Shown here in pieces: positions 2 to 56,588 of a stretch of DNA of 64,000 nucleotides (the stretch's first letter is position 1; each line of letters begins with the position of its first letter). The stretch is from an uncultured Clostridia bacterium. GTDB taxonomy: Bacteria; Bacillota; Clostridia; Christensenellales; UBA1242. The position numbers and the translations under genes are program-made. Under the pieces are notes generated by a model. It did not search any database. It saw nothing but the letters and a program-made list of their open reading frames with translations, and had not been told where the DNA came from. The stretch is taken from NCBI GenBank assembly GCA_944381105.1, contig CALWJU010000022.1:10083-74082 (forward strand), read 5' to 3'.

Positions 2-3000
2 GAGGTTACAACAACCGCTAGCAATGACAGCGAAAATCTTAGACCTATAATTTACAATAATGGACTTGAATTATATATATCAGAAAAAGACCAATCTTTA
101 TCTATGGGAGATATTTCTGTATATCACTACACATTACCACAAGATTACTCTCAAAATGAAGATGACTATATTCTTACTGCGACAATAACTCTACTAAATA
201 GAGATAGTGCTCTCGATGAGGAAACAGGTGTATATAATTTCATATTTGAAATATCTTTCTCTGTATATGTTGATTATAGAAGTAGAATAGATAGGGATAT
301 TGACTTTACTGTCGCTTTTGAAAGCAACTCGGGTAGCAATAGTTCGAGCGTAAATGGAGATGAGGGACAGATAACACTTAGCCTAACAAGGCAAAACTTC
401 ACAAATATAGATGTAACAAGTTTTAAAGTGGATAGGTCTGTTTGGACAAATGTAGATGGCACTTATTATACCGCACATCAAAAGGGTGAGCAGGCAAGCG
501 TATTTAGTCCAGGAAGCAGTTCAATTTTACAAATTACAGCAAACCCATACTTTGCTCATTATGATTATGTTGAGATTTCTTATAGCAATGTAGCAGTAGC
601 AAACGCAGTTGATTTTGAACTTTTACAACCTTATGGTTCAAATTATGATACCTTTATCTCTTTTGCTGGTGCTGATGTTTATACATATGGAAATACTCTA
701 AGATTTACACCTGATAGAAGCCTCGATTATGATTATGGGACACTTTATTTTAGAGCCTCAATAAGTTCATCAGTTGATTCAGATAGCATAATAAGATTTA
801 ATGTATCCTATTATACTAGTGAGGGCGAACTTTTAAGTCAGGTAAATTATTATATAACAATAAATTATCTCGCACAGCCAACTATTCTTGTTGATGGAGA
901 ACAAGATGCTTTTATTGCACTCGGTTCTAATGCAAATGTAGAGATTCAAGTTTTCTCTGACCAAGTTCTAGATAGTTTAACACTTGAAGGAGAAGGATTA
1001 GAAGGTTTAAATTTATCATCTTTTAGCGAACAAGAGTCTGATAGTAATACAAATATCAAGACATATTCAGCAACAATATCTGCCTCAGTCAAGGCAAGTG
1101 TTGCTTCCGCTAACAATACTTTTACTGTCCATGCGGTTGTAAGAAGGACACAAAATGGAGTACAAGAGACAAGACATGTATACGCAAATGTTACTTTGGT
1201 AGACTTTAAGATTGATACATCAAATGTGGGAATAGATGGTATAGAGGATGGCAACTTGGATGTTTGGCAAGGAGTAGGAAAAGCCTTCGAAGTAGATTAC
1301 AACATTTTGCCAGAGAGTTATAGTTATGACCATAACGACAGCGAAAGCGTAGAAAAGGTTAGTGATCTTTTAAATAGTAGGCAAGAATTTGAAATAAATC
1401 AATATTATGTATCGAGTAAGACAGATGCTGAGACTGATGAAGAAATTATTCAATATGCTATAAATTACAACTATGAAGAAGGTAGAGCATACACTCTAAG
1501 CGAAAGACTATTCTATATTGTTAATGGAAATGAAGAAATACCAGTTACAGATGAGTACAGAAATTCTGCTGGCGCAAGGTTTGAGTTTACAACCAATCAA
1601 GACGGAAGTCAGGATGCTGTTATTATAGGAGCAAGGCAGGGGGAAGTCGTTTCGTTTAGATTGAAAACATTTATTTATACTAGCAATGGTGGAACAGTTT
1701 CATATTCAACTGATTTTACAGTAACTGTAAATGTATACTCTGATGAAGATTTGCCTTTAACAATTTCAAATGCTACCGAATTTGAAAATCTTAATCCATC
1801 AAATTATACGAGTGGAGAAATCACACAAAATGATTATATCTTGACAAGTGATATTGTTCTTGAAAATCATAGTGCTTTCAATACAGATTTGATAAGTTCC
1901 CTTGACGGAAATGGTTATACAATATATATAAGAAGTTACAATCAGTCAGCAAGCGGAACGTTAAATCTAGCATTATTTAACAATATATTAAGTACAACCA
2001 CATTAAAAAATGTTAGGGTAAATGTCTATAATGGTGGACAAATCACAGTTGACCTTAGCACTCTTTCGAGCAGTGCAAGAATAAACATTGCTGGACTTGC
2101 TATAACAAATGAGGGTATAATAACAAATTGTGAAGTTGTTTCTTTCTATACAGATGGATATGCAAGTGGAACGTCTGATCTTTTAGTTCCAGCGACAGTC
2201 GAGCATAGCAACCCATCAGGCTTTAATGTTCGCTTCATAAGGGGAGCAAATACAACAGAGGAAATCTATATTTCTGATGGTTCTTCTTGGACTCCACAAA
2301 TAGCAGGATTAGTATTGCAAAATGTTGGAAATATTACAAATTCACGAGTAGGAGGAGACTCTGTAACAATATTAGGTGAAGACCGATCAGTGATTGATAG
2401 CAGTGGCAACACTGTTGCTATGGGCTATACATTCGCATCAGAAATTGATCTTGATACTTTCTATATAATAGGTCAAGGCGATATGGCTGGTTTTGTTTTG
2501 ATAAATTCAGGTTCAATTGCATCTTCATATGCAAAATTACTTGATATGGAAAATAAATCAAATTCAACCGCATATGACACCTCTGGCTTTGTGGGAACAA
2601 ATAGCGGAAATGTTATTACAAGTTATGTAGAAGGAAAACAAGACGAAAGCGACACTTCGGAAAGTCAAAAATATGCCTATACTGGTACATCATTAAAGTC
2701 TGCATATGGTATAATCGCTGGTTTTGTCAATGAAAACACAGGGACAGTTAAAGATAGTTATTCAAATATTTTAATATCCAATTCTTCAAATGCTTTGAAT
2801 GTATATCTTGCATCAGGTTTTGTTTATATAAATGAAGGCACTATTGAAACATCGTATTCTGCTTCACAAATAGCAAATTCACGTTCTACACAGATGAATT
2901 TTTCAGGAGTTAACGCAAGTGGCGACCTACTAGCAAATGGCAACTATATAAATTGTTATTTCTTTAACGCTTCAAATTACAATAACCCTGACTCTTCTGA

Positions 3001-6000
3001 TAATTCAAATGAAACGTTGTACGATACAGGAGCGGTGCTAATTACAAATCCAGAATCTTCAACATATTTCTATGGCTTCGCAATAGCAAGTTCTGAAAAT
3101 GATGGTATTTGGACAATAAGCGATGAGAATGGAATAAAACTTATTGAGCCTAACATTAAATCATACTCACATAGATACATTTCTTATATTCCAGACGACC
3201 AAGATTACGACGGAATAACAGGACAGGATGAACAAGGAAGATATGTTCTTCCTTATGCAATCTTGCAGTTTACCGATTCATCAAGAGAGATAAATACTGC
3301 TCTTGGTTCTGAAAACAATCCTATAATTATCTCAAATGCCCAAGAATTTGTAGAAGCCATGGGTACAAGCCAATCTTCATATACATCGCAGTATTTCAAT
3401 AGTTACTCGATTTGGGGAACATATAGAATGGTATCAAATATTAACCTCTCTGATTTAAGCACTTATATAAATTTACCATCAGTATCCAAGGCATTCTCAG
3501 GAAAATTTTATGGAAATGGGTTTACTATTTCAAACCTTTCTATTGCATCATATAATGCAGGAGTAGGTTATGGATTGTTTGCTTCTCTCGAAAGTAGGAA
3601 TAATTCAACTCCATTAATCAGCAACCTTTCGCTTACCATAGACCATGTTACAGCAGGAAATGTATCCATGGTTGGTGGTGTTGCTGGATATGCAAAAGAT
3701 TCTATACTAGTAAATATTGATATTACATTTAACGATGGAGCACAGATAAGTGGACTAAACTTTGTTGGTGGACTTGTCGGGCTATCATTTGGTAATAGTG
3801 TGATAAGAAACATTACAGTTCAAGACCCAAGCGTAACAGCAGAGACATATTCAAATAATGTAAGTGGTGATTATTTTACATCTAGCGTTATAACATCAAT
3901 AAGAAATAATATTAGAAATAACTTAAATAATTCGACTACTGTAAATTCATCGATAATCAATACGTTAAGTGTTTACTCATATGCTGGTGCTGTTACAGGA
4001 TACTCAGACCACTTTGTAACAATGTTAAATTCATTTAATATCAATCAAGCATTTGACTATACTATAAACAACATAAGAGTTAATGGAACGGTCTTTGTTC
4101 AAGGACAGATTGCAGGTGGATTGTTCGGACTTACATCTTATCAAACAAATGTAAGAGATGCAGGACTTGTTATAACCGCTGACAATGATAATGTCGATTC
4201 TCATATTATTGCTACCAAGTATTTCGCTGGTGGTGTTGCAGGTCAGTCCTTTGGTGGAATGAGTAGAATATTTGCTGAGTATGAATCAAGTATACAAAAT
4301 GATATTGAAGATGGGCTTTCAAGTTTCTACTTAAATAATGCAGAGGTGCAAAGGGGTGCAACAAATATCTTCTACCTTGACTCTAATCCATATGATCAAA
4401 TGTTTATAGGAGGTCTTATAGGTTATGTAGAAAGTGGTAGACTTGAAGTATCTTACTCCAAATTAAATGTAGTAAGCAATACAGCAGACTTTGCGGGTGG
4501 TATAATAGGAGGAATTGATCTAACTAATGCAAACACCTATCTTGCAGAGGCAGACTTATTGAATGAAGACGTATTTACAAAATATTTCATAAATGAAGTT
4601 TTTGCCACAGGAGATATTAGAGCAAGACAAGACGGCGATGATTTAGTAATGACCGCAGGAGGTATTATTGGTGCAAGTTATGGTCAAAACAATAGTATCG
4701 CTTTGCTTGCTGTTAATGCTTTAAATTACATCGCAAACTACGACTATCAAAATGAAGATGTTATAAATATTAATAATGATATAAATATTTCATCAACTAT
4801 AAAGACAAATTTAATTCTTGGTTCGGCGTTTGAGAGCAAAGATAGTACATCTCAAAGCGAAATAAATATAAATAATTTCACAAGTTTTATTAACCTCATT
4901 AGATTACGAGGTGATAATGGTGTAAGTGGAGTTAATTCTGCAACAGTGGCTTATTATGAAAGCTATACTTTTGACAACTTTATTGCAGCAATGAATTTGT
5001 TTGGTTCTGTCAGTGGAGGATTGCAAGACAACACTCTGTACGAAAATAATTATGTATATGCCATAAGTTCACCAATCAACTATACCTCATCTGATATAGG
5101 ACATACATTTACTCAACAAGCATTTTTAAGTTCTGGTGTATGGAGTACTGGGAATTGGACCCATGATCCAGAGGATTTGTTCCCATCAATTATGTATCAA
5201 AGGGTAACAAATTACATTTACCTAGATGACTACGCTGAGAGTGTTGAACGTGTATTCTCACTACTTAATTCAGGTGGCGGAAGTGATATAACAATTGTGG
5301 TCCGAGGTCTTGCGTCTGAGGATACAACTGATGAGTATAGTCATATAGATTTACGTGATTACGCTGATATTATTGATAATTATATGGTTAGAGGCTTCTC
5401 AGGTTCAATAATAGGAGGAAATTATTATATTACTGATGGTATTGACGAAGATACCAATGCAAATCGTACTCGTGTAAGAATAATATCTGATAAAAGTTTC
5501 ATAGAGTCAACTGGACCTGGTTTCTATATGAATGATGTTATAATTGAGTATGCATCACAAGGTTCAATAGATATCACAGCAAATACACAAGGTAGTGCTG
5601 GATTATTCTCTATGAGTGATTTAAATGAAGCGACTATAACCAATCTCGAAATAAGATTAAATTCACCAGTGGTGCTTACAGAAGAGAATAGTGGGACAAC
5701 TTCAAATGAAATCACAGTAGGTTTACTTGCTCCACAAATCATAAATTCTTCAATTACAAATTTAACAATTGATGCTCAAAATGTAAGTAGTTCATCCTAT
5801 CTTTTATCGACAAATATACAAAATAGTTATGATTCAATATCTGCTGGTATTATTGCAGGTGTAATGAATCAAACAAGCACAAGTTCAATTATGCAAGTAG
5901 ATGGTTTTAACCTGAATTCTTCTGCAAACCTAGTAAATCTCTATTCAGCAGGTAGTACAGAAGTTGATTTCCACAATCTATATCTAGGTAGTTATTTTGG

Positions 6001-9000
6001 AAGAATTATAAGATCGGATTCTGCTCTTGATATGCAATTAAATTTACAAGGAATTGATTTAAGTAGTTCTTCTTCTGATACAAATAAGCGTCTGTCAGTA
6101 AGCAATATTTCAGCAGAAAATGCCTATATTGGCGGTTATATCGGAATGAATAACGGTCTAGATCGACTTACTTTACAAGATGATTTCTCGACCTATATTG
6201 ATATTTTCCTTGATGATACGTCTATAAGTGTTACACCAACATTTGATAACCTTTATACAGGACTTATTTTTGGATTTGCAGGTAACACAAATATTAATTC
6301 TATAAATTTTGCTTATTCAAGTTTTGACGGTGGATTGTATGTTGTTCAAAATGGAACAAACAATGAAACAAATAGAGTTGAAATTACAAACCTTTATGCT
6401 GGCGGATTTGCTGGTAGACTTGAAAGTGCTATGACACTATCAAACATTAGCCAAATGAGTTATGAAGTAGTTTCAATTACAAGCAGTACTAGTGTGGATA
6501 TTTCGTCAATGGATACAACAAGAGATACCTTTGAATCTTCGGAATATGTAAGCAATACATTGGACATTTCAGGTACAGCAAAAGTAGGTATTGTCGTCGG
6601 CTCGACAAGTTCGACATTCTCTATGCAAGGGACAGGTTCAGACTTTACCGTGCTTAACAGAAATGGACAGACAATAAGGCTTTCTGGACTTACAAGTGGT
6701 TCGGCGGTCGGATCGGTGATAGGAGAATCGACATCAACGCTTGCAAATTCTATAACAGGTACTAGTACAATAAACCTCACAAGCGGTATTGTTTCTAATG
6801 CTCAAATTGTAGCAATAGGAGATAGTGAGGACGCTGAGGTATCTGTGGGCGGAATAATAGGACAGGTTGTTCATGACACTACATATGAAGACAGTGCATC
6901 GGCGAGGGTGTCAGTGGGGTCGTTAAACACTGCGTATGTCGGCTTTATAGGTGCAGTTTATTCAAACATTGAAAACTTAAATTTCGGTGGTATTATAGGA
7001 AGGACATTGTTTGCAAATAGTAATGATTCTATCAACTTAACAAATACATATTATGGTGGAGTAGTAAAGATATTTGGTGAGAATAGCGAAAATTCAAGGG
7101 CTTACGTCGGAGGTTCTGTTGGTTCTCTTGAATCAAGTCAGACATCAACAAGCACGTATAATGTAAGGCTAATAAATTCATTTAACTACGGAGATGTGTT
7201 CGTTGAATATGATGAATTTGAGTCATTAAATCATTACATATTTGGTGGACTTTTAGGAAGAATTGAAAGTGCTTATAGAATAACAGCAAGTGGCAACTAT
7301 TCTATGGTTAGCAGTCATAATACGAGATTTATAGGAAATGACGAAAATGACCTAAATAATTCAAGCCATGCTTTGTTTGGGGATACTCCTGTATCTGCTA
7401 CAAGCGGAGCAATTAATAATAACTATTATAATTTTGCTGTTTCTCTATGCTCGGACGAATATGGTACAGATATAGCATATAGTTCTGCATATAGAATAAA
7501 TGGCTTTGGATATGGAGAAAGTAGCATAGGAGGCACAGATGGTAGCACTACATTAACCATGCTTGATCGTTACGATGAAATATCCAGATTGATATATATT
7601 GATGAGGGAAGTGTTGAAGAGGGACACAAAGTAAATCCTATAAACCTTTCTTCTGCAAATACATCTATGATAGATATAGAGTATAAATATAATGGTATTA
7701 CATATACAACATTTACGGAAACATCTACACTTTCAACGCAAATATATACAAATGGAGCAGATAGTACAAATCTTGAAAATGTTGCTATTATAGGGAATGG
7801 ACAGGAAATAACATATTCCTTAGATGATGATAGCCTTTCTCGGTCATCAATTATAAATAAATTAAGCGGATTCTCTTATGTTTCTAACCTTGTTGTAAAT
7901 CTAGATGTAGAATTAGACAGTACTGACTCATCGTTTGCTGGCGTTGCCAACGACATGTATGATAATACAATGATTTATGGTGTACAAGTTAAAGGAACAA
8001 TGAGCATAGGTGGAAACACTGTTAAAAACTTAGCAGGAATTGTTGCAAACCTATATTCAGGCAGATTGCAAGAGGTAAATACCAGCCTTGATATAATATA
8101 TAGAAGTAGCAGAGATGGATATGTCTACGGTATTGCAGACCTAGTAAATGAGATAAGCGGAGGAATAACCGACGGTTCACTCAATAAAATAATAGTAGAT
8201 TCTTATTCAACAGGTAGCATTACATCATATATTTCAGCAAATCTATACGCATTCAGCGACACACCATCAACGGATACGTTTAGAATAGATGGATGTTATT
8301 CAATTGCAAAGTTGGATAGAAATGATTATATGTCGAGTAATGATGGTGATGGAATATTATCGGTATTTGGTGTTGAAAATGCGAACGATAACATCATAAA
8401 TTCCTACTTTGACTATAACGCAGTAAATGCAGATGTATTAGAGATAGGTACAGACTACCAACTTTCAACGAGTGGATTGATGAATAATGCTGATCTTTCA
8501 TCTATATATGATGAGAGAAATATTGACTTTAATTATGGCTATCCAACATCAAAAATAGGTGCATTAAAGACCTCTTCATTTGCTGAGATTACAAGTTCAA
8601 ATTCAGCCACAAGCGATATGTACGAGTACTATGTAAACGAGACAGAGTATTCTCGTCTTGCAAACTTTGAGACGCCATCAGATTATGATAGTGCATACTT
8701 TATCATAACTAATGCAGGGGTACTTGCTCAATCAAATTCATTGACAAAAGAGATTTCAGAGGAAACATATAATATTAGAAATTTCATGCTCCAATATGAT
8801 ATAGATTTGTCTCAGTCAGAATATAATGACAACTGGACAAGTCTGCTCTTTGAGGCAGAGACCTCAATAGTTGAGGGTGATGATCCAAATTCTACCGAAG
8901 ATGATGTAGAAATATCATCGTTTGCGCCAATTTATCTTGATGGTAGAGAAAAGACTATTTCAGGGTTAAATGCACCATTGTTTGAGACAATAGGTATCTC

Positions 9001-12000
9001 AGCGGATGCCGATGCGACTCAACTCTCGACAATTAAAAATTTGAGATTGACTGACGCTAATGTAAATAATTACGGCATACTTGCAAAAGTTATTTACAAC
9101 ACCTTTGTAACAAATATGACCTTGATTGGTAATGTGTCAGGAAATAGTTCGGGCTCGCTTGTCGATAGCACTCAGCAAGAAGATTTATTCGGAGAAAGTT
9201 CGTCATATCTAACAATAGGTGCTCTCGCAAATGAGGCAGAAAATTCAAATATTTCTGCAATAACAAATATTGTTACTATAAATGTAACAGAATACAACAA
9301 CAGTAGTAATATCCTCGCTGTTGGCGGACTTGTCGGAACAATGCACAACAGCCAAATCAACTATTCTTCAAATTACGCTCCTATAAATGTAGCAGTTGCA
9401 AATGGCAATAGTGAAGCATATAGTAAAAACTACTTTGTCGGCGGACTAGTTGGTTTTGTGTTCAATAATAGCGAAAATAACGAAGAAACAAGCAGTCTAA
9501 GGTATAGTTATAATGCATCCTCTGTAATGGCAGGATACGCAAATACTAATAGCCTTTTAACAACACAGGGTCAATATTATGTTGGCGGTCTTGTAGGTTA
9601 CAGCAGTGCTAATAATTTGACAATATCAGGCTGTTATAACTCTGGTGCTATCAAATCAGGCAATAAGTCAAATGGCAGGACAATAAATAATACAGTTCAA
9701 GGAATATCTTATGGCGGTGGTATAGTAGGACATGCAAATTACGCAAGCCTTGACAACTGCTATAATGAAGGCACTATCGAGGCACTTGGTGCAAGTCCTG
9801 TAACAGATTTTAGATGGGCAACTAATTACGATCTTGAATTATATCAATCAAATCAAAAAAATGTTTATGCGTATGCAATAGGACATTTTGACGCCTGGGA
9901 TGGCGACGAGGGTTCTCTTCAAGTTTATGATAATAGTTCAGACTCTGTCTATATGAATGGATCATATCTCGACCAAGACAGTATAATAAATAGTTGGAGT
10001 TGGTCGGATATTAGCAGCAGGGTAGCGACATCTTCACTTGGAATGGATCAAGATTCAAGAATAGCTGTTTCCACAAATATAGGCAATGACACCTTGGGTT
10101 TAATCCATATATACGATATTCGTGGGGCAAGAGTCGTGATTAATAGTTACGGAATCTTTAGATATTCCGATAATGCTTCAGATGATGTAATAGTAACATC
10201 TTACAATAGTTTTGGTTTACCAACAAATTTTATATTAAAATTAAAAGTAACATTAGGTATACAATATTATTATGATGAAGTAAGAAGTGGTGGAATTTTT
10301 GTAGATTTTGGAGTTTTTAAATTAGATTTATCATCTTCAGACAGTTTGGTGGACACTTACCGAGCAGAAAATGACGAATACGCATCAATTGACTATTCAA
10401 ATGCTTACGCAGATTATGAAAAACAATATTTAGAAGACAACAACAGTTTTCTCATTTCTAATTATAACGACACAGCAATAGAGAGTGATGGGGAGAATAT
10501 TAAGAGGAATACTCGAAGCAACATTACAACAAATATAGAAGATATTAAGGTAACCACAATTGATGGTATATCATACTATCTTGCCGATTCAGATGGGCTT
10601 AATGCTATATTTGGTGCTGGCATGTTTAACTACCAGATTACAGAAACATGGGAAGAATTAGGACTGCCGTATGTAAATGATAGGTCTTATTATTCAGTTT
10701 CAGCATGGACAGATGATGATACTCCATTATCAACTTATGTAGATAGTGTCAACGAGAATGGTATAACATTTACAGCATATAGCAGTGAAGAGGTTGAAGG
10801 TAATATAAATTATAGAGTAACTCTTGATTATGACGTTTCATTAAACTTCAACATGTCATCATTAAACTATTATTATATAGATGGCTATTCATTCGGTATT
10901 GGTATAAACAATTATCAAGAACTTCAACCTATTGCAGACTATACTCTCATAGATGGAAGCGGTAAAGAATATAAAAATGTAGTAGTTAAAGCGATCTATT
11001 TAGAAGATGGACAATCTTTGCCAGCAACGGAAGAAATAGGAAGCGACCAAGATTTTGTTGAAAGTAATCCAAATATCGTCTACTTTGCATTGCAAGATAA
11101 TATGCTTATCTATATTCCAAATGCTGAACTAAATAATGGTAGGATGTCGACCATAGTCAACAGAGAAGACGTAACACTTAATGGAGTAGGTACAGTATAT
11201 ACATATAATAATGAGGATGGCACTCAGACTACGGAGACTGGACAAGAGGCATTTAATCATGCCGTACTCGATATAATAGAAAATAGATTTGCAGGCAAAG
11301 AATATTATTGCACGATAAGCGGACTTGAAAGTAGATATAAGACAGTTTCGTTTGGTGGAGTTCGAGGTAGTGCAGATAGTGATAGCATTAGCGATATCGT
11401 TGAAGGTCTTGAAGAAGATTTTGGAGGATTAACAGGGGAGAGTGAAGGAAATAGTTCTTTATCATATGGTCAAGTTATAGACGTATGGTACAATGAAAGC
11501 ACAATAACTCAAAATGACGAGGGCTATCAAGTAATGCTTTCCGCTCTTGCCAATACCAATATTGACGAGGCTGTTGCTATAAATAACAGCGGAGAGGTTG
11601 TTTTAGGATTCTATAACAACACATGGCTTTTAGGAGAAGAGACAACTATTTCAAGTGGTGGTCATACCTATGAGGTGTCCCTAAATGACAATACTTTGAC
11701 ATTGTCAGGAGAGGGTATCAATGAAGATGATGTTCGCTCATTCCTTGAAAGCATAAGTGCAATTGCAAATGATTTCTCGGACACTCTTTCTTTTGAAGAT
11801 TTAAATCTATTTAACCATTTAATCGACAATTTTACCGATGAAATTGCTATAAATTTCAGAGGAAGCGGGGTTGGAACGGCAACAGCAACATTTGCAAAAG
11901 TTTGGTCATTTAATTCAGAAAACAATATGATTTCAATAAATGACGGCGGTGCTAGTATAGTCGAAGAAATCGTGCGAGAAAATGTAACCCCTTATACATT

Positions 12001-14446
12001 TACTTTGGCTAATGGAAGTACTATAAATATCTATCAAGGGGAGATAATATTTGATTATGTACAATCATACTATACATCTTTATATGAAATGTCTTTGCAT
12101 ATTGACGATATAGATTTTGGCGATACACTTATTTATGATGTGTCAGTTACAACTGATGGTGAAACACAATCTAGTCGTTCCGCAATCACACAGACTAATC
12201 AAGCCGGTGGAAGTCTAGATATCATCTCGGGCGGACTAGACTTTATAGTTGGAGAGTCTTCAACTTATCAAATTGATATCTATTCAAGTTATGTTTTAGG
12301 AGATGACGTTTTAGAAAGATTTTATGTCAATGTTGATAACGTTATAGACAATTCGTCAATTTACTCTCAATTTGTCTTTACAGGTAATATCAATCTTGAT
12401 AGCCAGACTATTGAAGAAACTAGCATTTTATTCAAATATGGAGATGTTTTCTTAACATTGAATTATACTACTTTACAATACCCTAGGTTAAATGAAGACG
12501 GAGAACAGATAACCGATATAGAAGGAAATCCGTTAGTTGATAATCATGAAATTTTTGTATTAAGTGATTCATATAACAATACAATTTTAGAATACGATTA
12601 TTTCGTTAATGAATATGTGATTTATTTTGGAAATGACGGACAAATTCTTGATCCTGTTGATGAAGATCTAGGAACGGAGGAAGCAGGGGGAAGAACTTTA
12701 ACTTTGGAAGAAATGGAAGAAATGTATAATAATAATGAAAGTATTTACGATTCTCATGGAAATGGATATTTTATTAGAGATCTTTTTATCTTAAATGATG
12801 ATGGCATATATCAAAGTGTAGTATCCAAAGAAGAAATTGAAGGGCTGTTTAGTATTGAAAGTGTTGGAGAAGTAAATTATCTAGTTCTAACAGATAATGA
12901 TTATGATGTTATGGAAGACCCTATTGATTTAGGCAATGGTACATCTTACAACAATCAAATAGAGGCTCAGTCTTACGATTGGCAACAGAGTCCTACTTAT
13001 TTTAGTGAATATTCAAGTTATCAAATTGATACAAACATATTAAAAGACTATAAAGATATGTTTAACTATACTCTCGGAGGAAATCAAGATTTATATTCAA
13101 CATCAATCGATCAATTTGATAATACTCTTATTTACAATGTTCTGCTTAGACCGACAAGCAATGTGGCATTAGAGATTTCAGTAAAAGATGAATATAGTGC
13201 TAGTGAAGGTTTCGATAGTGATGTTACAAATGAAGATTTAGAGGTAAGCCCTGTTTATTCAATAGTACTTATGAATGATACTATGTTTACAAACATTTCA
13301 AATATTGGATTTGCCAATACAAATGGTGTAAGCATTATGGGTAATGGCTATTATATTTCTTATTATGGAGCACCGCTATACAATCGAATGCAAGGAGGAA
13401 TCTTTAAAGATATTTACTTCTTAGGCGAAAATCACGATACGTTATTCTTGAAGAGAAATGATTCGGCTATTGAGAGTGAAGATGAAAGATTTTCACAACA
13501 TCTTTACAACATTAAATTGTATGGTTCAGTTTCTGATTTCAATAAAGACTATGGTGCTTTGATTGATTATGATTTAGATTACTCAGCAACACAACTTGAT
13601 ATTACAAGTTATGTATCTATTACCTCAGATATTAACACTAACAACAATAGTCAAGCAACAAATGTTGGAAAAGGTGGCAACACCTATGACCTAACACTGT
13701 TTAGTGGATTTAATGCAACAGAAAACGATAGTCCTCTTCGCTTTACAAATTATGGTTTTATCTCTGCATCAAACGGACTTGACGGCAAAAATGGTGAGAA
13801 TGGAACCCGCTTTGGTGAAGATGGCGAAAACGGATATGATGGTAGCGCTGGTAGAAATATAATTATTTCTGAAAATAGTGTAATTAGTTTGAATTATTTC
13901 AGCAATAATGGTATAATTAAAGCAGGCGATGGTGGAAATGGTGGAGCAGGTGGCTCAGGATATAGAGCCGAAGAAGACTTACTAGATATAAACTCTGGTA
14001 TACAAACACCTGGTCAGGCAGGTCAAGGTGGCAATGGCGGAGACGCTGGAAGTATCATTTTAGTAAATCAATCTGACTCTGACGAACAACCACAGACGCC
14101 TAGCCTATCGCAACGTGGCATAAATGGACAAGACGGAGCAAGAGGAAGATATAGTATAAGCTCAAATGCAAACTTGAATTTAGTTGATGCTAGTGGTTTT
14201 ATATACAGTCTATTTATATGGGACACAATAAATCACTTAAACAATGATGCTCTTAATACAATTGCAGGATCATATACTTTAAGAGATGGTTCAGAAACAA
14301 GGTTTACTCTATATGAATTCAATACGTCAATAAGGGATCAACTACCAAGTTGGTATACCCTAGAAGGTGATTACGCCACACAGTACCCTACAAGCGATTG
14401 GGACGGAAACACTTACGATGAAATAAAATCAGAAATAAATACTTAG
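2..14446 (+). CDS. Giant (>4,814 aa within window) secreted/surface repeat protein, GLUG-like beta-helix architecture; 5' end outside window
   Basis: Single uninterrupted ORF. The same frame has no stop from nt 2 to the first ATG at 104, so the N-terminus lies upstream of the window. Recurrent module-start motif GNG(Y/F)xI (LDGNGYTIYI ~nt 1905, FYGNGFTISNL ~3510, IGNGQEITY ~7795, LDGREKTISGL ~8940, MGNGYYISY ~13340). Many N-x-G-x-I-x-x-S-Y strands (ITNEGIITNCEV, NVGNITNSRV, NSGSIASSYA, NSGNVITSYV, NEGTIETSYS). Many GG(L/I)(V/I)G motifs (FVGGLVGLSFGNS, FAGGVAGQSFGG, FIGGLIGYVESG, YVGGLVGYSS). No C-terminal TM or LPxTG. Confidence 0.85.
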   Translation, partial: EVTTTASNDSENLRPIIYNNGLELYISEKDQSLSMGDISVYHYTLPQDYSQNEDDYILTATITLLNRDSALDEETGVYNFIFEISFSVYVDYRSRIDRDIDFTVAFESNSGSNSSSVNGDEGQITLSLTRQNFTNIDVTSFKVDRSVWTNVDGTYYTAHQKGEQASVFSPGSSSILQITANPYFAHYDYVEISYSNVAVANAVDFELLQPYGSNYDTFISFAGADVYTYGNTLRFTPDRSLDYDYGTLYFRASISSSVDSDSIIRFNVSYYTSEGELLSQVNYYITINYLAQPTILVDGEQDAFIALGSNANVEIQVFSDQVLDSLTLEGEGLEGLNLSSFSEQESDSNTNIKTYSATISASVKASVASANNTFTVHAVVRRTQNGVQETRHVYANVTLVDFKIDTSNVGIDGIEDGNLDVWQGVGKAFEVDYNILPESYSYDHNDSESVEKVSDLLNSRQEFEINQYYVSSKTDAETDEEIIQYAINYNYEEGRAYTLSERLFYIVNGNEEIPVTDEYRNSAGARFEFTTNQDGSQDAVIIGARQGEVVSFRLKTFIYTSNGGTVSYSTDFTVTVNVYSDEDLPLTISNATEFENLNPSNYTSGEITQNDYILTSDIVLENHSAFNTDLISSLDGNGYTIYIRSYNQSASGTLNLALFNNILSTTTLKNVRVNVYNGGQITVDLSTLSSSARINIAGLAITNEGIITNCEVVSFYTDGYASGTSDLLVPATVEHSNPSGFNVRFIRGANTTEEIYISDGSSWTPQIAGLVLQNVGNITNSRVGGDSVTILGEDRSVIDSSGNTVAMGYTFASEIDLDTFYIIGQGDMAGFVLINSGSIASSYAKLLDMENKSNSTAYDTSGFVGTNSGNVITSYVEGKQDESDTSESQKYAYTGTSLKSAYGIIAGFVNENTGTVKDSYSNILISNSSNALNVYLASGFVYINEGTIETSYSASQIANSRSTQMNFSGVNASGDLLANGNYINCYFFNASNYNNPDSSDNSNETLYDTGAVLITNPESSTYFYGFAIASSENDGIWTISDENGIKLIEPNIKSYSHRYISYIPDDQDYDGITGQDEQGRYVLPYAILQFTDSSREINTALGSENNPIIISNAQEFVEAMGTSQSSYTSQYFNSYSIWGTYRMVSNINLSDLSTYINLPSVSKAFSGKFYGNGFTISNLSIASYNAGVGYGLFASLESRNNSTPLISNLSLTIDHVTAGNVSMVGGVAGYAKDSILVNIDITFNDGAQISGLNFVGGLVGLSFGNSVIRNITVQDPSVTAETYSNNVSGDYFTSSVITSIRNNIRNNLNNSTTVNSSIINTLSVYSYAGAVTGYSDHFVTMLNSFNINQAFDYTINNIRVNGTVFVQGQIAGGLFGLTSYQTNVRDAGLVITADNDNVDSHIIATKYFAGGVAGQSFGGMSRIFAEYESSIQNDIEDGLSSFYLNNAEVQRGATNIFYLDSNPYDQMFIGGLIGYVESGRLEVSYSKLNVVSNTADFAGGIIGGIDLTNANTYLAEADLLNEDVFTKYFINEVFATGDIRARQDGDDLVMTAGGIIGASYGQNNSIALLAVNALNYIANYDYQNEDVININNDINISSTIKTNLILGSAFESKDSTSQSEININNFTSFINLIRLRGDNGVSGVNSATVAYYESYTFDNFIAAMNLFGSVSGGLQDNTLYENNYVYAISSPINYTSSDIGHTFTQQAFLSSGVWSTGNWTHDPEDLFPSIMYQRVTNYIYLDDYAESVERVFSLLNSGGGSDITIVVRGLASEDTTDEYSHIDLRDYADIIDNYMVRGFSGSIIGGNYYITDGIDEDTNANRTRVRIISDKSFIESTGPGFYMNDVIIEYASQGSIDITANTQGSAGLFSMSDLNEATITNLEIRLNSPVVLTEENSGTTSNEITVGLLAPQIINSSITNLTIDAQNVSSSSYLLSTNIQNSYDSISAGIIAGVMNQTSTSSIMQVDGFNLNSSANLVNLYSAGSTEVDFHNLYLGSYFGRIIRSDSALDMQLNLQGIDLSSSSSDTNKRLSVSNISAENAYIGGYIGMNNGLDRLTLQDDFSTYIDIFLDDTSISVTPTFDNLYTGLIFGFAGNTNINSINFAYSSFDGGLYVVQNGTNNETNRVEITNLYAGGFAGRLESAMTLSNISQMSYEVVSITSSTSVDISSMDTTRDTFESSEYVSNTLDISGTAKVGIVVGSTSSTFSMQGTGSDFTVLNRNGQTIRLSGLTSGSAVGSVIGESTSTLANSITGTSTINLTSGIVSNAQIVAIGDSEDAEVSVGGIIGQVVHDTTYEDSASARVSVGSLNTAYVGFIGAVYSNIENLNFGGIIGRTLFANSNDSINLTNTYYGGVVKIFGENSENSRAYVGGSVGSLESSQTSTSTYNVRLINSFNYGDVFVEYDEFESLNHYIFGGLLGRIESAYRITASGNYSMVSSHNTRFIGNDENDLNNSSHALFGDTPVSATSGAINNNYYNFAVSLCSDEYGTDIAYSSAYRINGFGYGESSIGGTDGSTTLTMLDRYDEISRLIYIDEGSVEEGHKVNPINLSSANTSMIDIEYKYNGITYTTFTETSTLSTQIYTNGADSTNLENVAIIGNGQEITYSLDDDSLSRSSIINKLSGFSYVSNLVVNLDVELDSTDSSFAGVANDMYDNTMIYGVQVKGTMSIGGNTVKNLAGIVANLYSGRLQEVNTSLDIIYRSSRDGYVYGIADLVNEISGGITDGSLNKIIVDSYSTGSITSYISANLYAFSDTPSTDTFRIDGCYSIAKLDRNDYMSSNDGDGILSVFGVENANDNIINSYFDYNAVNADVLEIGTDYQLSTSGLMNNADLSSIYDERNIDFNYGYPTSKIGALKTSSFAEITSSNSATSDMYEYYVNETEYSRLANFETPSDYDSAYFIITNAGVLAQSNSLTKEISEETYNIRNFMLQYDIDLSQSEYNDNWTSLLFEAETSIVEGDDPNSTEDDVEISSFAPIYLDGREKTISGLNAPLFETIGISADADATQLSTIKNLRLTDANVNNYGILAKVIYNTFVTNMTLIGNVSGNSSGSLVDSTQQEDLFGESSSYLTIGALANEAENSNISAITNIVTINVTEYNNSSNILAVGGLVGTMHNSQINYSSNYAPINVAVANGNSEAYSKNYFVGGLVGFVFNNSENNEETSSLRYSYNASSVMAGYANTNSLLTTQGQYYVGGLVGYSSANNLTISGCYNSGAIKSGNKSNGRTINNTVQGISYGGGIVGHANYASLDNCYNEGTIEALGASPVTDFRWATNYDLELYQSNQKNVYAYAIGHFDAWDGDEGSLQVYDNSSDSVYMNGSYLDQDSIINSWSWSDISSRVATSSLGMDQDSRIAVSTNIGNDTLGLIHIYDIRGARVVINSYGIFRYSDNASDDVIVTSYNSFGLPTNFILKLKVTLGIQYYYDEVRSGGIFVDFGVFKLDLSSSDSLVDTYRAENDEYASIDYSNAYADYEKQYLEDNNSFLISNYNDTAIESDGENIKRNTRSNITTNIEDIKVTTIDGISYYLADSDGLNAIFGAGMFNYQITETWEELGLPYVNDRSYYSVSAWTDDDTPLSTYVDSVNENGITFTAYSSEEVEGNINYRVTLDYDVSLNFNMSSLNYYYIDGYSFGIGINNYQELQPIADYTLIDGSGKEYKNVVVKAIYLEDGQSLPATEEIGSDQDFVESNPNIVYFALQDNMLIYIPNAELNNGRMSTIVNREDVTLNGVGTVYTYNNEDGTQTTETGQEAFNHAVLDIIENRFAGKEYYCTISGLESRYKTVSFGGVRGSADSDSISDIVEGLEEDFGGLTGESEGNSSLSYGQVIDVWYNESTITQNDEGYQVMLSALANTNIDEAVAINNSGEVVLGFYNNTWLLGEETTISSGGHTYEVSLNDNTLTLSGEGINEDDVRSFLESISAIANDFSDTLSFEDLNLFNHLIDNFTDEIAINFRGSGVGTATATFAKVWSFNSENNMISINDGGASIVEEIVRENVTPYTFTLANGSTINIYQGEIIFDYVQSYYTSLYEMSLHIDDIDFGDTLIYDVSVTTDGETQSSRSAITQTNQAGGSLDIISGGLDFIVGESSTYQIDIYSSYVLGDDVLERFYVNVDNVIDNSSIYSQFVFTGNINLDSQTIEETSILFKYGDVFLTLNYTTLQYPRLNEDGEQITDIEGNPLVDNHEIFVLSDSYNNTILEYDYFVNEYVIYFGNDGQILDPVDEDLGTEEAGGRTLTLEEMEEMYNNNESIYDSHGNGYFIRDLFILNDDGIYQSVVSKEEIEGLFSIESVGEVNYLVLTDNDYDVMEDPIDLGNGTSYNNQIEAQSYDWQQSPTYFSEYSSYQIDTNILKDYKDMFNYTLGGNQDLYSTSIDQFDNTLIYNVLLRPTSNVALEISVKDEYSASEGFDSDVTNEDLEVSPVYSIVLMNDTMFTNISNIGFANTNGVSIMGNGYYISYYGAPLYNRMQGGIFKDIYFLGENHDTLFLKRNDSAIESEDERFSQHLYNIKLYGSVSDFNKDYGALIDYDLDYSATQLDITSYVSITSDINTNNNSQATNVGKGGNTYDLTLFSGFNATENDSPLRFTNYGFISASNGLDGKNGENGTRFGEDGENGYDGSAGRNIIISENSVISLNYFSNNGIIKAGDGGNGGAGGSGYRAEEDLLDINSGIQTPGQAGQGGNGGDAGSIILVNQSDSDEQPQTPSLSQRGINGQDGARGRYSISSNANLNLVDASGFIYSLFIWDTINHLNNDALNTIAGSYTLRDGSETRFTLYEFNTSIRDQLPSWYTLEGDYATQYPTSDWDGNTYDEIKSEINT
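3495..4700 (+). repeat. Densest cluster of GLUG-like GG(L/I/V)xG motifs inside the giant ORF (protein-level repeats)
   Basis: Translation shows VGGVAGYAKDS, FVGGLVGLSFGNS, YAGAVTGYSD, IAGGLFGLTSY, FAGGVAGQSFGG, FIGGLIGYVESG, FAGGIIGGID and TAGGIIGASYGQ at roughly regular spacing. A second cluster lies at ~9300..9790. Confidence 0.6.
13775..14152 (+). repeat. Gly-rich collagen-like/GGxGG low-complexity segment near the C-terminus of the giant ORF
   Basis: GLDGKNGENGTRFGEDGENGYDGSAGRN ... GDGGNGGAGGSGY ... GQAGQGGNGGDAGS ... GINGQDGARGRY, read directly from the translation. Confidence 0.6.
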
Positions 14447-14457
14447 GAGATGAAAAA

Positions 14458-15207
14458 ATGAAAGAAGCAAACAAAACAGAAAACGGAAAATGTATTCATG
14501 ATGGACACAGAAAAAGACTTATCAATACTGTAAACAAGGTTGGTCTTCAAGGACTCAGCAAAATTCAAGCAATGGAATATATTTTATTCTTTATCTATCC
14601 ACGAGGGGATGTAAATCCTCTCGCCCACCGCTTGCTTGACCGATTTGAGAACGTTCAAACAGTACTTGAAGCGTCGGTAGAAGATTTAATGGAGGTTAAA
14701 GGAGTAGCAGAAACAACTGCACAAAAGATTCACTCTTTACTTGAAATTTTTTACTATTACACAAATGAAAAACTCGAAGCAAAGCCATTAAAATCATTAG
14801 GAGATTTCCTTGATTATATGGAACAACTTCTTAGATACCGTAGTGATGAAGAAATGCATATCTATGGTGTAAATACAGCAGGCGAGATTATACAAGGTAG
14901 GTGTTTAGCCAAAGGCACAACAAAGATTGTCGGTGTAGACATGCGAGATATTGCTCTTTATCTTTCAACATTTAAAGTTCCAGGAGCGTTTATTGTTCAC
15001 AATCATCCAGGTGGCAACTGTACTCCATCAAAACAAGACGAATATTCTTTTGACAAAATGAAAGGAGTATTTGAAATTGCAGGTTGTAAACTCATGGATT
15101 CTCTTATAATTGGAAAAAATGGCATTTACAGCATGGATAGAAAATGTAACCTAAGAGTGTTTAGTGAAGGTTTAGAATATTTCCAATCATTGCTCCTAGA
15201 AGACTAG
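14458..15207 (+). CDS. radC: RadC-family JAB/JAMM domain protein with HhH region
   Basis: JAMM signature HNHPGGNCTPSKQD (H-x-H-x7-S-x2-D). HhH-like VEDLMEVKGVAETTAQKI. SD aggag 6 nt upstream. Starts 11 nt after the giant ORF stop. Confidence 0.85.
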   Translation: MKEANKTENGKCIHDGHRKRLINTVNKVGLQGLSKIQAMEYILFFIYPRGDVNPLAHRLLDRFENVQTVLEASVEDLMEVKGVAETTAQKIHSLLEIFYYYTNEKLEAKPLKSLGDFLDYMEQLLRYRSDEEMHIYGVNTAGEIIQGRCLAKGTTKIVGVDMRDIALYLSTFKVPGAFIVHNHPGGNCTPSKQDEYSFDKMKGVFEIAGCKLMDSLIIGKNGIYSMDRKCNLRVFSEGLEYFQSLLLED

Positions 15208-15550
15208 CAATAAAATTCATCAAAAATCCTAAAATTATGAAAAGCCAAAGACGAGGGGATTTGTCCTCTCGTTTTTTGTTTTCTTCGTTTTCTAGCAGTT
15301 CGTTTCCAAAAGGTAGCACACATAGGCAGTACACACCACCATCATCGTATTTTATTGAAATATATTCTTGACGCTCTAAAAACGTAAGAATATTATCAAG
15401 TGCCTCAGCATCTATTTTATATTTGCTAGGCATTGCAGAAATAATGTCCTTTGATTCTATTATGTTATATGATCCATAAGGGCATTCTTTAACTAATATT
15501 TTAAGTACAAGTTTTGACTTTATGTCAAGCATAGAACTATTTTTTGCCAT
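15161..15550 (-). CDS. Small wHTH-like protein with C-terminal TM helix (paralog of 15625..15990)
   Basis: ORF open to 15694, but the 5' part overlaps the divergent gene and promoter. ATG at 15550 (MAKNSS...) lies downstream of TTGTCA-17-TAAAAT (15567..15595). C-terminal TM is LWLFIILGFLMNFIASLLGAMIG. Aligns with the neighbour (KLVLKIL / KLVLKYL, EYISIKY / NYIEFVV, VYCLCV / YYYCVKL). ATG 15568 is an alternative start. Confidence 0.55.
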   Translation of the reverse strand: MAKNSSMLDIKSKLVLKILVKECPYGSYNIIESKDIISAMPSKYKIDAEALDNILTFLERQEYISIKYDDGGVYCLCVLPFGNELLENEENKKREDKSPRLWLFIILGFLMNFIASLLGAMIGNILNLH

Positions 15551-18039: not shown

Positions 18040-18085
18040 AATTTTACAAAATTAAAAAATTTTACAAAAATATATTTGTTTGCTA

Positions 18086-18114
18086 TTGACAAATATATTT
18101 TATTGTGCTACAAT
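18086..18114 (+). promoter_or_regulatory. Sigma-70-type promoter for the lipoprotein gene
   Basis: TTGACA (18086..18091) -17 nt- TACAAT (18109..18114). SD ggag before ATG 18133. Confidence 0.5.
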
Positions 18115-18132
18115 AATAGTGGGAAAGGAGAT

Positions 18133-18807
18133 ATGAGTATGGGAAATAATAAAAAAAATTTGCCTAATTGGGCAAAATTAAAAAAGACTATTCTTTTAAG
18201 TTTAGTTGCTTCAACTGCTCTTGCAGCATTTTCAGGCATATTTATTGCTTGTGATGAAAATGAAAACAATCAAAACAATCAAAATGGACAAAACGAGCAA
18301 AATCAAGAGGCGTTGTTGGCGGAATATCATCAAAGGATAGAAGAAATAAAAGGTGATATGGAAGAGGTAAATCAGGTTCTTGAAGAATATGAAGAAATGA
18401 TGGATAAGTATAGAGAAGATGGAGATATTCTTGCATTTGATGAATATTATCAAAAATATGCTGAATACGATAGTGAAAATATGAAGCCTTTGGAAGAAGA
18501 ATATCATCAATTGCTTTTAAAAATTCTAGAAATAGAAAATTTAGATATATATAATCAACTAAGCCAAATGGAGCGATCATTAGAAGAAATGCAGGCGGAA
18601 CAAACTAAAATTAGGGAACAACAAAATGAATGTTTATTAAATGGAGATTTTGAACGTCATGCACAATTGGAACAAGAATTTAATGTTATATTAAAGCAAT
18701 ACAATACGCTGTATAACCAATATGTTGAAATGTTAGATACGATAGAAGATAAATATGTAGATGGCTATCATTACCAACTCGAAGTTGATGAAAGTGAATT
18801 AGGATAA
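18133..18807 (+). CDS. Lipoprotein, Q/N/E-rich coiled-coil
   Basis: Start moved to ATG 18133 (SD aaaggag). Signal peptide plus lipobox: LLSLVASTALAAFSGIFIAC|DENEN. Remainder is NQ repeats and E/Q-rich heptad-like sequence. Confidence 0.7.
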   Translation: MSMGNNKKNLPNWAKLKKTILLSLVASTALAAFSGIFIACDENENNQNNQNGQNEQNQEALLAEYHQRIEEIKGDMEEVNQVLEEYEEMMDKYREDGDILAFDEYYQKYAEYDSENMKPLEEEYHQLLLKILEIENLDIYNQLSQMERSLEEMQAEQTKIREQQNECLLNGDFERHAQLEQEFNVILKQYNTLYNQYVEMLDTIEDKYVDGYHYQLEVDESELG

Positions 18808-22020: not shown

Positions 22021-22049
22021 AAAGGTTGTAGAATTTCTACAACCTTTTT
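22021..22049. terminator. Bidirectional rho-independent terminator
   Basis: aaaGGTTGTAG-aattt-CTACAACCttt, flanked by an A-run (plus-strand 5' side) and a T-run. Starts immediately after the stop of the minus-strand gene 22048..24027. Confidence 0.8.
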
Positions 22050-30795: not shown

Positions 30796-31461
30796 ATGGA
30801 TGAAAAGATATTGCTTGCCGAAAAGATAAAAGAAGAAAGTAAGACTGCACAGGCGGAGACATTAAAAAAGATAGAGAAAAAGTATATAGAACTTAAAGGT
30901 GGCGAGAAAGAGCAAGGAGAGAAACAGTTTGAGAAAATAAAGAAATCAAACGAGTATACAGTAAATCCTTTCTCTGCGTCGGCATTTAAAGAGAATGAGG
31001 TAGAGAAAAGAGAAAAAGATAATAATCTATCGGCTAGCAGTTCTTTGGTAATTGAAACGCCTAACTATGATATGATCGAAACTCTCTCTGAACAGCAAAG
31101 GCAAAAGATATTTAAGGTGGAGGAAGGACAAGAAGAAGGAAGCAAGACATCAACTAAGCCTAACAGATTTAAGATAATCATGTTTTCCATACTTTTTGCA
31201 ATTTTTGGTATTTGGGGGATAGTCAATATTGCCACACTAGACAATCTTTCTTCTGCAATAAGTGATATCACAACAGAATATAACATCAACTTATTATCTT
31301 ATTTAAATAATCTCCACAACCTTGATGCAACAAATTCAGAGAACATGGAAAATTTATTTCAGACCATACCAAAAGATGAATTGCCACCAAATACAATAGG
31401 CGAACAATCCAATTGGTTTGATAGATTTTGCAATTTCATAGCAGGGCTATTTGGAGGATAG
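30796..31461 (+). CDS. Single-pass membrane protein in the FtsL position of the dcw block
   Basis: K/E-rich cytoplasmic N-terminus, one TM (FKIIMFSILFAIFGIWGIVNIA), and a Leu/Asn heptad-like ectodomain. Position between rsmH and the PBP. No sequence-level match recalled. Confidence 0.5.
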   Translation: MDEKILLAEKIKEESKTAQAETLKKIEKKYIELKGGEKEQGEKQFEKIKKSNEYTVNPFSASAFKENEVEKREKDNNLSASSSLVIETPNYDMIETLSEQQRQKIFKVEEGQEEGSKTSTKPNRFKIIMFSILFAIFGIWGIVNIATLDNLSSAISDITTEYNINLLSYLNNLHNLDATNSENMENLFQTIPKDELPPNTIGEQSNWFDRFCNFIAGLFGG

Positions 31462-34183: not shown

Positions 34184-34194
34184 AGGAGGATTTT

Positions 34195-39763: not shown

Positions 39764-39934
39764 TAAAATGTCTTGTTAAATTAATTAAAAAATAAATAAA
39801 AAAGGAAAATATTTTTCTTATAAATAATTATAATAAATATAAATTGACAAAAAGTGAAATTTATTTGCTTTTTTCGTGCTAAAAATTTATAATAAATATG
39901 TATAAATAAAAAGTTTTGAAATGGAGTGTCCTAT

Positions 39935-56225: not shown

Positions 56226-56588
56226 ATGGCAAGAGGAAAAAGTAAAAAAGGACGGATATTTTTTGTCGTTATCTTGCTTTTTGTTATAGTGGCTGGAATT
56301 GGCGGATATTTTACCGCTAAAAGCATCACAGCAAATGACACATTTGAGATTATTGGTGACAGGGAGATTACTCTTTACGTCGGAGAAGATTATCACGAGG
56401 AGGGTGCCATAGCCATTTCTTTTGGGCAAGACATTTCCGATAAAATCAAAATTGAGGGAACAGTCGACACTCAGACAGAGGATACATACTACATAAAGTA
56501 TACAGTTGATGATATAAGGTATCGAGGTGTTGAACGCTATCGTATTGTAAAGGTTGTAGCAAGCGAGGTGGGCAATGAAAGTGTTTAA
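56226..56588 (+). CDS. Membrane-anchored protein with Ig-like (DUF5011-like) ectodomain
   Basis: N-terminal TM IFFVVILLFVIVAGIGGYF, then DTFEIIGDREITLYVGEDYHEEGAIAISFGQDISDKIKIEGTVDTQTEDTYYIKYTV. SD aaaggag. Confidence 0.6.
   Translation: MARGKSKKGRIFFVVILLFVIVAGIGGYFTAKSITANDTFEIIGDREITLYVGEDYHEEGAIAISFGQDISDKIKIEGTVDTQTEDTYYIKYTVDDIRYRGVERYRIVKVVASEVGNESV

Follow-up and report, generated by a model that had tools for sequence, protein, structure and literature searches.

A 64,000-nucleotide stretch of contig CALWJU010000022.1 from an uncultured Clostridia bacterium (GenBank assembly GCA_944381105.1, positions 10,083 to 74,082 of the forward strand; hereafter the window) opens with one giant open reading frame (ORF). 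The frame occupies positions 2..14446 (+) and is translated into 4,814 sense codons followed by a TAG stop, with its first ATG at position 104; it is open to the 5' edge of the window, as a preliminary description made from the sequence had reported. A 44.5 kb scaffold in ENA, found through an exact look-up of the neighbouring RadC protein, is 100% identical to window positions 4458-25207, and the giant gene on that scaffold is called at 6,466 amino acids (aa). The window therefore holds the 3' 74% of the gene, 1,652 N-terminal residues being missing from it. The best explanation of the ORF is that it encodes residues ~1,653-6,466 of a cell-envelope protein, giant and very acidic, from an uncultured Clostridia bacterium of the gut. 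The portion encoded here is referred to as the window protein, and its residues are numbered from the edge of the window. The ORF is real. Since the identical scaffold comes from an independent assembly, the ORF is not the chimera that the preliminary description had considered; the junction between the 3' end of the giant gene and radC was recovered from three independent samples by the same look-up, at 99.95-100% identity, and seven colinear orthologous loci speak against a chimera as well. An artefact of assembly or annotation is excluded by the three independent assemblies together with the colinearity with more than 100 full-length relatives. Ser, Asn, Gly, Ile, Thr and Asp are abundant in the window protein, which has an isoelectric point (pI) of 4.05 and contains 1.5% Lys and 0.1% Cys. 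No DNA tandem repeats of note were found in the giant gene, and self-BLAST of the window protein gave no internal repeats.

A scan of species-representative genomes yielded seven loci with an orthologous gene, all in metagenome-assembled genomes of uncultured Clostridia or Eubacteriales, several of which carry a gut origin in their record names (e.g. a mouse gut catalogue and water-deer colon). The seven proteins are colinear with the window protein over ~3,800 aa, one of them (L001) at 68% identity and the others at 35-38%. At all seven loci the orthologous ORF runs 1,660-1,720 aa further upstream and starts with the signal peptide of a lipoprotein, e.g. MKKFFVGLLSIFVLLGATVLTA-C-GG. An exhaustive search with aa 601-1800 as query against 1.84 billion cluster representatives returned 235 relatives, 137 of them at E < 1e-30, mostly 6,000-7,100 aa long and matched at the same relative position. 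The family comprises more than 130 clusters at 50% identity, is colinear, non-repetitive and acidic (pI 4.1-5.0), and the 5th to 95th percentile of its length is 6,004-6,884 aa. Among the 86 relatives exceeding 5,900 aa, taken as full-length, 75 carry the signal and the lipobox Cys by a strict regular expression (family pattern MKKF..L..G..LxAC; lipobox test [LVI][ASTVI][GAS]C), and xxAC is seen by eye in nearly all. This agrees with the earlier proposal that the export or anchoring signal is N-terminal and outside the window, and the full-length protein is probably acylated on a lipobox Cys at its N-terminus and thereby tethered to the membrane. The window protein has no LPXTG motif, and neither have the 86 full-length relatives within their last 60 aa; a sortase-anchored serine-rich repeat protein (SRRP) was rejected as an identity for it, there being no LPXTG and no tandem or serine-rich repeats. 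A homologue search in a word-indexed database gave no match for aa 2901-3500, only five fragments for aa 601-1200 and one fragment for a C-terminal profile; such a database evidently misses the giants of this family, which the exhaustive search revealed. No source names any of the relatives other than as hypothetical, and a literature search on giant lipoproteins of Clostridia or the GLUG beta-helix returned nothing relevant.

Along the window protein, aa 1-575 (2..1726, +) form a conserved, beta-rich region which is devoid of GLUG units, follows on from the ~1,650 aa outside the window, shows 31-47% identity to distant orthologues, is present in 65-98 family members and has no Pfam match. It is followed by beta-helix module 1 at aa 584-1054 (1751..3163, +), identified by AlphaFold2 (AF2) modelling, Foldseek and six GLUG-like units (AGF/LvxxNxGxIxxSY); this module has the entry motif LDGNGYTI at aa 634-641 and is the best-conserved part of the family, with 50-61% identity to distant orthologues. 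Beta-helix module 2, at aa 1104-1504 (3311..4513, +), is recognised from AF2, from invariant GG..G columns and from an hhalign match to module 5. It has FYGNGFTISNL as its entry motif (aa 1168-1178) and contains a GGxxG ladder as well as two short helical insertions. Two further stretches are probably beta-helical: aa 1745-2540 (5234..7621, +), with the entry motif IIGGNYYI at aa 1805 and a GGxxG ladder kept in the family consensus, and aa 2555-2890 (7664..8671, +), with IIGNGQEI at aa 2598 and a single GLUG-like unit at aa 2676-2701. Module 5 occupies aa 2899-3300 (8696..9901, +) and has the entry LDGREKTISGL and four GLUG units at aa 3107-3260. Beyond it lie a variable region at aa 3400-4400 (10199..13201, +), of which aa 3800-4400 are almost unalignable even to the closest relatives, a conserved C-terminal module at aa 4420-4720 (13259..14161, +), defined by an iterated hidden Markov model (HMM) and AF2, and a C-terminal tail at aa 4721-4814 (14162..14443, +), for which the model has low confidence and which varies across the family and carries no sorting signal.

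The preliminary description had named at least five modules, each opened by one of two motifs. All five openers are present, namely GNG[YF]xI at aa 636, 1171, 4253 and 4447 and DGREKTISGL at aa 2980, and four of them (aa 636, 1171, 2981 and 4447) are conserved across the family; the opener at aa 4253, within the unalignable region, is possibly a chance occurrence. With the degenerate openers GGNYYI (aa 1805) and GNGQEI (aa 2598), the window holds six credible modules, at aa 636, 1171, 1805, 2598, 2981 and 4447, and the family consensus together with a marginal GLUG match indicates one more upstream of it. The dozens of N-x-G-x-I-x-x-S-Y strands said to follow each opener were not recovered: the strict motif occurs four times, all within one module (aa 835-944). 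An HMM iterated from the protein's own units, which are tandem stretches of ~25-30 aa of the form (G/A)G(L/I/F)(V/A)GxNxGxIxxSY, finds 12 units in total, six at aa 695-960, one each at aa 1468 and 2676, and four at aa 3107-3260; none was found by this model in the C-terminal module. The pattern GG[LIV][VIA]G occurs 12 times in the window protein. Profile-profile comparison with hhalign relates module 2 to module 5 (probability 96%) and aa ~2020-2140 to aa ~2260-2380 (probability 91%), the latter indicating an internal duplication; the homology between modules is weak and is seen by this type of comparison only, not by self-BLAST. Searched as a whole, the protein gave no Pfam family at E <= 0.1, and NCBIfam and PDB sequence searches were likewise empty. 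In 600-aa tiles, the GLUG family (PF07581, gathering score 20.5 bits) is the sole relevant Pfam family, and its match is marginal: the tile aa 3001-3600 scores 22.6 bits (E 1.2e-4, three stretches), making module 5 the sole stretch that passes the cut-off, while aa 1201-1800 (14.8 bits) and an upstream tile of L001 (16.5 bits) stay below it. The HMM scan thus reports GLUG for one tile and not for the protein as a whole.

The fold was modelled for aa 575-1700 together with 11 full-length relatives. The AF2 model (predicted template modelling score, pTM, 0.74) consists of serial short strands and is confident at aa 584-1054 (tile residues 10-480) and aa 1104-1504 (tile residues 530-930), which correspond to modules 1 and 2. 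Compared with the PDB by Foldseek, it retrieves at rank 1 3n6z (E 8.9e-5), a 'putative IgA1 protease' (BACOVA_03286) of Bacteroides ovatus, and at ranks 2-4 the IgA1 proteases of G. haemolysans and S. pneumoniae (7uvk, 6xjb); lower matches include fucoidan, alginate and pectate lyases, phage tailspikes, Ag43 and an SRRP. The matched folds are right-handed beta-helices, in agreement with the beta-solenoid proposed from the sequence. A 26-position profile built from the 12 own units and run against 177,635 PDB sequences retrieved the S. pneumoniae IgA1 protease 6xjb (E 0.008; three tandem units at chain residues 225-316) and, weakly, 3n6z, which we take to carry the Pfam GLUG family itself. The likeness to GLUG and IgA-protease proteins first noticed in the sequence therefore holds up, most of the modelled parts are supported as GLUG-type beta-helices, and the structural identity of the protein is secure.

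The same matches, together with those in sequence, raise the question of whether the protein is itself an IgA1 protease of the M26/Zmp type. In the proteases, the beta-helix constitutes NTD2, a non-catalytic gating domain, and catalysis resides in a HEMTH motif elsewhere (PMC9637739); if the deposited chain of 6xjb starts at about residue 665, the matched units lie inside NTD2, so the match is confined to the non-catalytic helix. The 4,814-aa window protein contains no HExxH motif, three of the 86 relatives have one anywhere, and no Peptidase_M26 match was found in Pfam, so that, as far as sequence tells, the protease reading is refuted. Taken together with an assembly or annotation artefact, which a very long gene from a metagenome assembly can bring to mind, it is scarcely credible. 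A surface enzyme which degrades mucin, plant or algal glycans, and in which one or more of the beta-helix modules are lyases or glycosidases of the pectate-lyase superfamily, is distinctly unlikely. The gut habitat of the organism would suit such an enzyme, and Foldseek does match the fucoidan lyase FdlA, PL6 alginate lyases, pectate lyases, GH55 and tailspike depolymerases at E 0.01-0.4, and PL3 lyases and tailspikes for the C-terminal module at E ~1-5. The lyase matches are however weaker than those to the GLUG and IgA1-protease structures, and their template modelling scores (TM-scores) of 0.1-0.3 denote a generic fold. At E <= 10 the tiles match no lyase, glycosidase or Beta_helix family of Pfam, the NCBIfam search was empty and PDB sequences showed no similarity. 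The invariant residues of the family are mainly G, N, Y and S, few being charged. The earlier statement that no catalytic motif, sorting signal or transmembrane segment is seen in the window protein is confirmed, neither HExxH, LPXTG nor a hydrophobic run being present in it.

At the other end of the protein, the iterated HMM delineates a module of ~350 aa near the C-terminus of ~85 or more family members, made up of a short beta-helix-like part (entry IMGNGYYISY in the window protein, IIGNGYxISY ... FIKD in the family) and a Gly-rich part. The latter contains five (G-x-x)3-4-G runs (13775..14146, +), at aa 4592-4601, 4605-4617, 4642-4651, 4671-4683 and 4706-4715, each of 3-4 triplets, compared with 0.26 runs expected from shuffles; across the family, 84% of the G-x-x runs fall within the last 500 aa. 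An AF2 model made with 20 homologous segments (pTM 0.63) is confident for aa 4419-4719 (tile residues 40-340) and shows the Gly-rich part as neither helix nor strand (DSSP coil), with predicted local distance difference test (pLDDT) values of 80-91 for its blocks. Foldseek gave nothing significant for this module, either against the PDB (best E ~1, with an SRRP, tailspikes and PL3 lyases) or against the viral models of BFVD (best E 5.5e-3, probability 0.54, TM-score 0.11), and no match was found in Pfam or among PDB sequences, the latter giving only spurious PPR matches. Polyglycine-II sandwiches are known from the gp38 adhesin tip of phages T4/S16 and from the snow-flea antifreeze protein, and comparable Gly-rich arrangements from short collagen-like segments and mycobacterial PGRS. 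The five G-x-x runs, split by short strands and adjoining the hypervariable region at the presumed distal end of a fibre, may resemble these, from which the module differs in having no structural match in the PDB or BFVD and no sequence match; a polyglycine-II or collagen-like arrangement is no more than a lead.

A variable region ahead of a conserved module close to the C-terminus would also suit a contact-dependent effector filament, in which, as in CdiA or a polymorphic toxin, a long beta-helical stalk would deliver a variable C-terminal toxin to neighbouring cells. The long beta-helical architecture would fit such a filament, with the Gly-rich module in the place of the 'pre-C-terminal' one, and members of the family diverge widely in their last 50-250 aa. 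Neither a toxin nor a pre-toxin domain is however found by Pfam, the tail of the window protein is conserved in its closest full-length relative (P0006), and the genes downstream are radC, then uvrB and uvrA, with no small immunity gene. Since the protein is moreover predicted to carry a lipid anchor, and not to be exported through a two-partner or type VI/VII system, we regard an effector filament as highly improbable.

The conservation of the protein is unevenly distributed along its length. Identity to distant orthologues peaks at aa 601-1500, with 41-61% per 100-aa window, and identity to P0006, ~75% in the core, drops as low as 26-30% at aa 3800-4400 before returning to 50% at aa 4401-4600. 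The stretch aa 3800-4400 is recognisable by BLAST in 0-2 of 152 family members. In the two near-identical genomes L003 and L005, the giant proteins share 96-100% identity along their first ~3,250 aa, are 63-85% identical over the stretch corresponding to window aa ~2,560-3,280, and then back to 93%. The ratio of nonsynonymous to synonymous substitutions (dN/dS, Nei-Gojobori) in this pair is 0.01-0.10 over the proximal ~3,250 aa and 0.24-0.59 distally. The membrane-proximal half is thus under strong purifying selection and the distal half is variable. One sharply bounded block (aa ~4,725-4,965 in the numbering of L003 and L005) has a dS of 0.65 and a dN of 0.32, compared with a background dS of 0.1-0.25, which points to an imported segment; the block corresponds to module 5, so that one GLUG module may have been exchanged as an allele between lineages.

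This gradient bears on whether the protein is a structural component of the envelope, i.e. a spacer, sheath or S-layer-like scaffold which organises the wall or the surface and is no ligand-binding adhesin. Much in the family is compatible with such a role: it is colinear, non-repetitive and tightly bounded in length (6,004-6,884 aa), its genes have housekeeping neighbours and conserved synteny, dN/dS is as low as 0.01-0.10 over ~3,250 aa, and the invariant residues are structural in kind. A highly variable, mosaic distal half would on the other hand be unexpected in a purely structural lattice; Pfam detects no domain for wall binding (SLH, CWB2 or other) in the whole protein or the tiles, and the product is predicted to be a single lipid-anchored chain and not a self-assembling lattice protein. 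A structural role is for these reasons considered unlikely. The earlier suggestion of an adhesin or host-interaction factor is, for its part, strengthened by the selection gradient.

We therefore favour, as the probable though by no means certain explanation, a lipid-anchored surface fibre built of GLUG-type beta-helices, the variable distal end of which binds an external ligand non-catalytically. Judging from the orthologues, the protein would be exported by Sec, cleaved by signal peptidase II and acylated on the lipobox Cys, so that its mature N-terminus would sit in the outer leaflet of the cytoplasmic membrane. The chain would consist of non-repetitive beta-rich domains, among them at least six right-handed GLUG-type beta-helix modules in the window and one more upstream, and could form, end to end, a fibre of ~100 nm, long enough to cross the wall (an estimate which takes ~0.48 nm per beta-helix rung of 25-40 residues over 6,466 residues). 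The stalk or scaffold would be its membrane-proximal half, which is conserved, and the distal half would be exposed and fast-evolving, by relaxed or diversifying selection together with recombination, and would end in the (G-x-x)n module. Non-catalytic binding of an external ligand by this distal half (a host or dietary glycan, a glycoprotein or another cell) is the most likely function, which would make the protein a lipid-anchored fibrillar adhesin.

Several points weigh against this proposal. The lipobox was read in orthologues; for this gene, whose N-terminal part falls beyond the window, it is the called length that is known. The AF2 models cover ~1,560 of the 4,814 residues, with low confidence in the linkers and at aa 1505-1700. 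Beta-helices also scaffold many glycan-cleaving enzymes, and a cryptic active site is possible. The dN/dS ratio is below 1 everywhere, so positive selection is not demonstrated, and length, gene order and core modules are strongly conserved across species, which is unusual for adhesins; a conservation of this strength fits a structural or housekeeping role in the envelope equally well.

The gene is located among housekeeping genes. It is followed after 12 nt by radC (14458..15207, +; HhH and JAB domains), which has an AGGAG ribosome-binding site and is translationally close-coupled to it (12-nt gap, 14444-14460). No terminator signal was found between the two genes, the first being a strong terminator-like hairpin of 13 pairs with a T-run after radC (15247..15276, +); a single transcript may thus cover the 19-kb gene and radC, and cotranscription is probable on this basis. 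Around the giant gene are radC, uvrB, uvrA, metG and rsmH, and the window further contains genes for a PASTA-bearing penicillin-binding protein, a class II aminoacyl-tRNA synthetase and a cardiolipin synthase. In the orthologous loci, a divergent PP-loop ATPase gene and an iPGM gene lie upstream of it. This conserved housekeeping synteny indicates that the locus belongs to the vertically inherited core genome and is not an island. The GC content of the surrounding genome is low (~34%).

A second giant ORF lies at 39926-50425 (+), upstream of a cardiolipin synthase gene; it starts with GTG and encodes 3,499 aa with an N-terminal signal-anchor (KWPVWLTVILTILGVGAVSGVTVLGV), a pI of 4.05, 1.5% Lys and no Pfam match. 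It was rejected as a paralogue of the first, having no BLAST match to it, no GLUG-like units and no G-x-x runs. The predicted extracytoplasmic proteins of the window, such as those at 27182-29797, 56575-57759, 39926-50425 and 2-14446, are all extremely acidic and poor in Lys (pI 4.05-4.25, 1.5-2.5% Lys), and the cytoplasmic ones contain ~7-12% Lys. As the median Lys content across the giant family is 5.3%, the depletion is specific to the lineage of the window and not a trait of the family. We speculate that Lys-poor exported proteins may be an adaptation to trypsin-like gut proteases.

Other features of the window stand apart from the giant gene. The ORF at 27182-29797 (+) encodes an 871-aa protein with an N-terminal CvpA (colicin V production) membrane domain, the remaining ~700 aa of which are very acidic (pI 4.05) and have no family match. 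Two adjoining, slightly overlapping genes at 33473-34183 and 34117-34911 (+) both match Zn_peptidase_2 (PF04298) and represent either a tandem duplication or a split gene. At 58431-63914 (-), the gene for a 727-aa protein (DUF2201_N metallopeptidase-like and VWA-like) adjoins that for a 972-aa AAA_5 ATPase (dynein-related/MoxR-like), a pairing which is frequent in uncharacterised chaperone or defence-like modules. Four ORFs of 659 (22048-24027, -), 415 (52081-53328, -), 243 (18076-18807, +) and 221 aa (30796-31461, +) match no Pfam family at E <= 0.001-0.01; the longest of them is likewise called in an independent assembly (L008). The 25 genes called in the window end in TAA (20) or TAG (5) and never in TGA, which does not occur in frame either; in this small sample, TGA seems to be simply avoided.

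Comparison with known systems places the family close to, and apart from, several types of giant or beta-helical protein. It shares with the IgA1 proteases the right-handed parallel beta-helix of NTD2 and its unit, (G/A)G(L/F)VGxNxGxIxxSY, and differs from them in lacking the M26 part, HExxH, G5 and LPXTG, and in having at least seven beta-helix modules in one chain of 6,466 aa instead of one; its similarity to the solved GLUG proteins is too low for whole-protein Pfam and PDB searches. Among giant surface proteins of Firmicutes, Giant1-5 of Apilactobacillus kunkeei are extracellular proteins of 3,000-8,000 aa with beta-solenoid binding domains, and the beta-solenoid domains of such proteins and of SRRPs are reported to bind glycoproteins, polysaccharides and epithelial cells (PMC12863079). 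Like these (and the L. reuteri SRRP, 5nxk), the window protein is a very large and acidic protein, presumably elongated and exposed at the surface of a host-associated Firmicute, with related beta-solenoid domains and diversification by intragenic recombination. Unlike them, it shows no detectable sequence homology, has no serine-rich or tandem repeats, and is encoded by a single gene in a housekeeping context and not in a gene cluster. Its polarity is also reversed, the predicted lipid anchor being N-terminal and the variable end C-terminal, whereas the solenoid of Giants and SRRPs is N-terminal. In being acidic and in having little Cys and Arg but much Thr, Asp and Ser, the window protein fits the compositional signature of giant surface proteins for which Reva & Tuemmler 2008 are cited in PMC10756260, and like the products of other giant bacterial genes it is without recognisable domains. 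It is however non-repetitive, much smaller than the Omnitrophota proteins of more than 30,000 aa (West-Roberts et al. 2023, bioRxiv 10.1101/2023.11.21.568195), and represented by one colinear orthologue which is conserved across many species. Giant beta-solenoid surface proteins of Firmicutes are thus already known in the A. kunkeei Giants and the SRRPs; new in this family are the lack of homology to them, the reversed polarity, the non-repetitive colinear chain, the C-terminal module and the complete absence of annotation.

Some 19 kb of a small, low-GC gut genome is devoted to one protein, the length and order of which are conserved over more than 100 sequence clusters, and which belongs to a family without a name, Pfam coverage or a homologue of known structure. 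The family enlarges the set of giant Firmicute surface proteins, and the selection gradient marks the part of the protein that presumably faces outward. The very low Lys content of the exported proteins of this lineage hints at an adaptation to gut proteases. A bolder reading, which we put forward as a tentative and rather doubtful one, is that the family constitutes a new class of envelope organelle in a widespread clade of uncultured gut Clostridia: a single-copy, vertically inherited fibre of ~100 nm with a lipid anchor at its N-terminus, the conserved beta-helical stalk of which would bear a recombining variable region and a receptor-binding Gly-rich tip of new fold, possibly of the polyglycine-II type. 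If so, the tip would set the host surface or partner cell to which the bacterium attaches, in analogy with the tip of a phage tail fibre. Should the distal region and the Gly-rich module indeed mediate attachment, they would offer a marker for strain typing, possibly a new protein fold, and a handle on how uncultured commensals colonise the gut of mammals.

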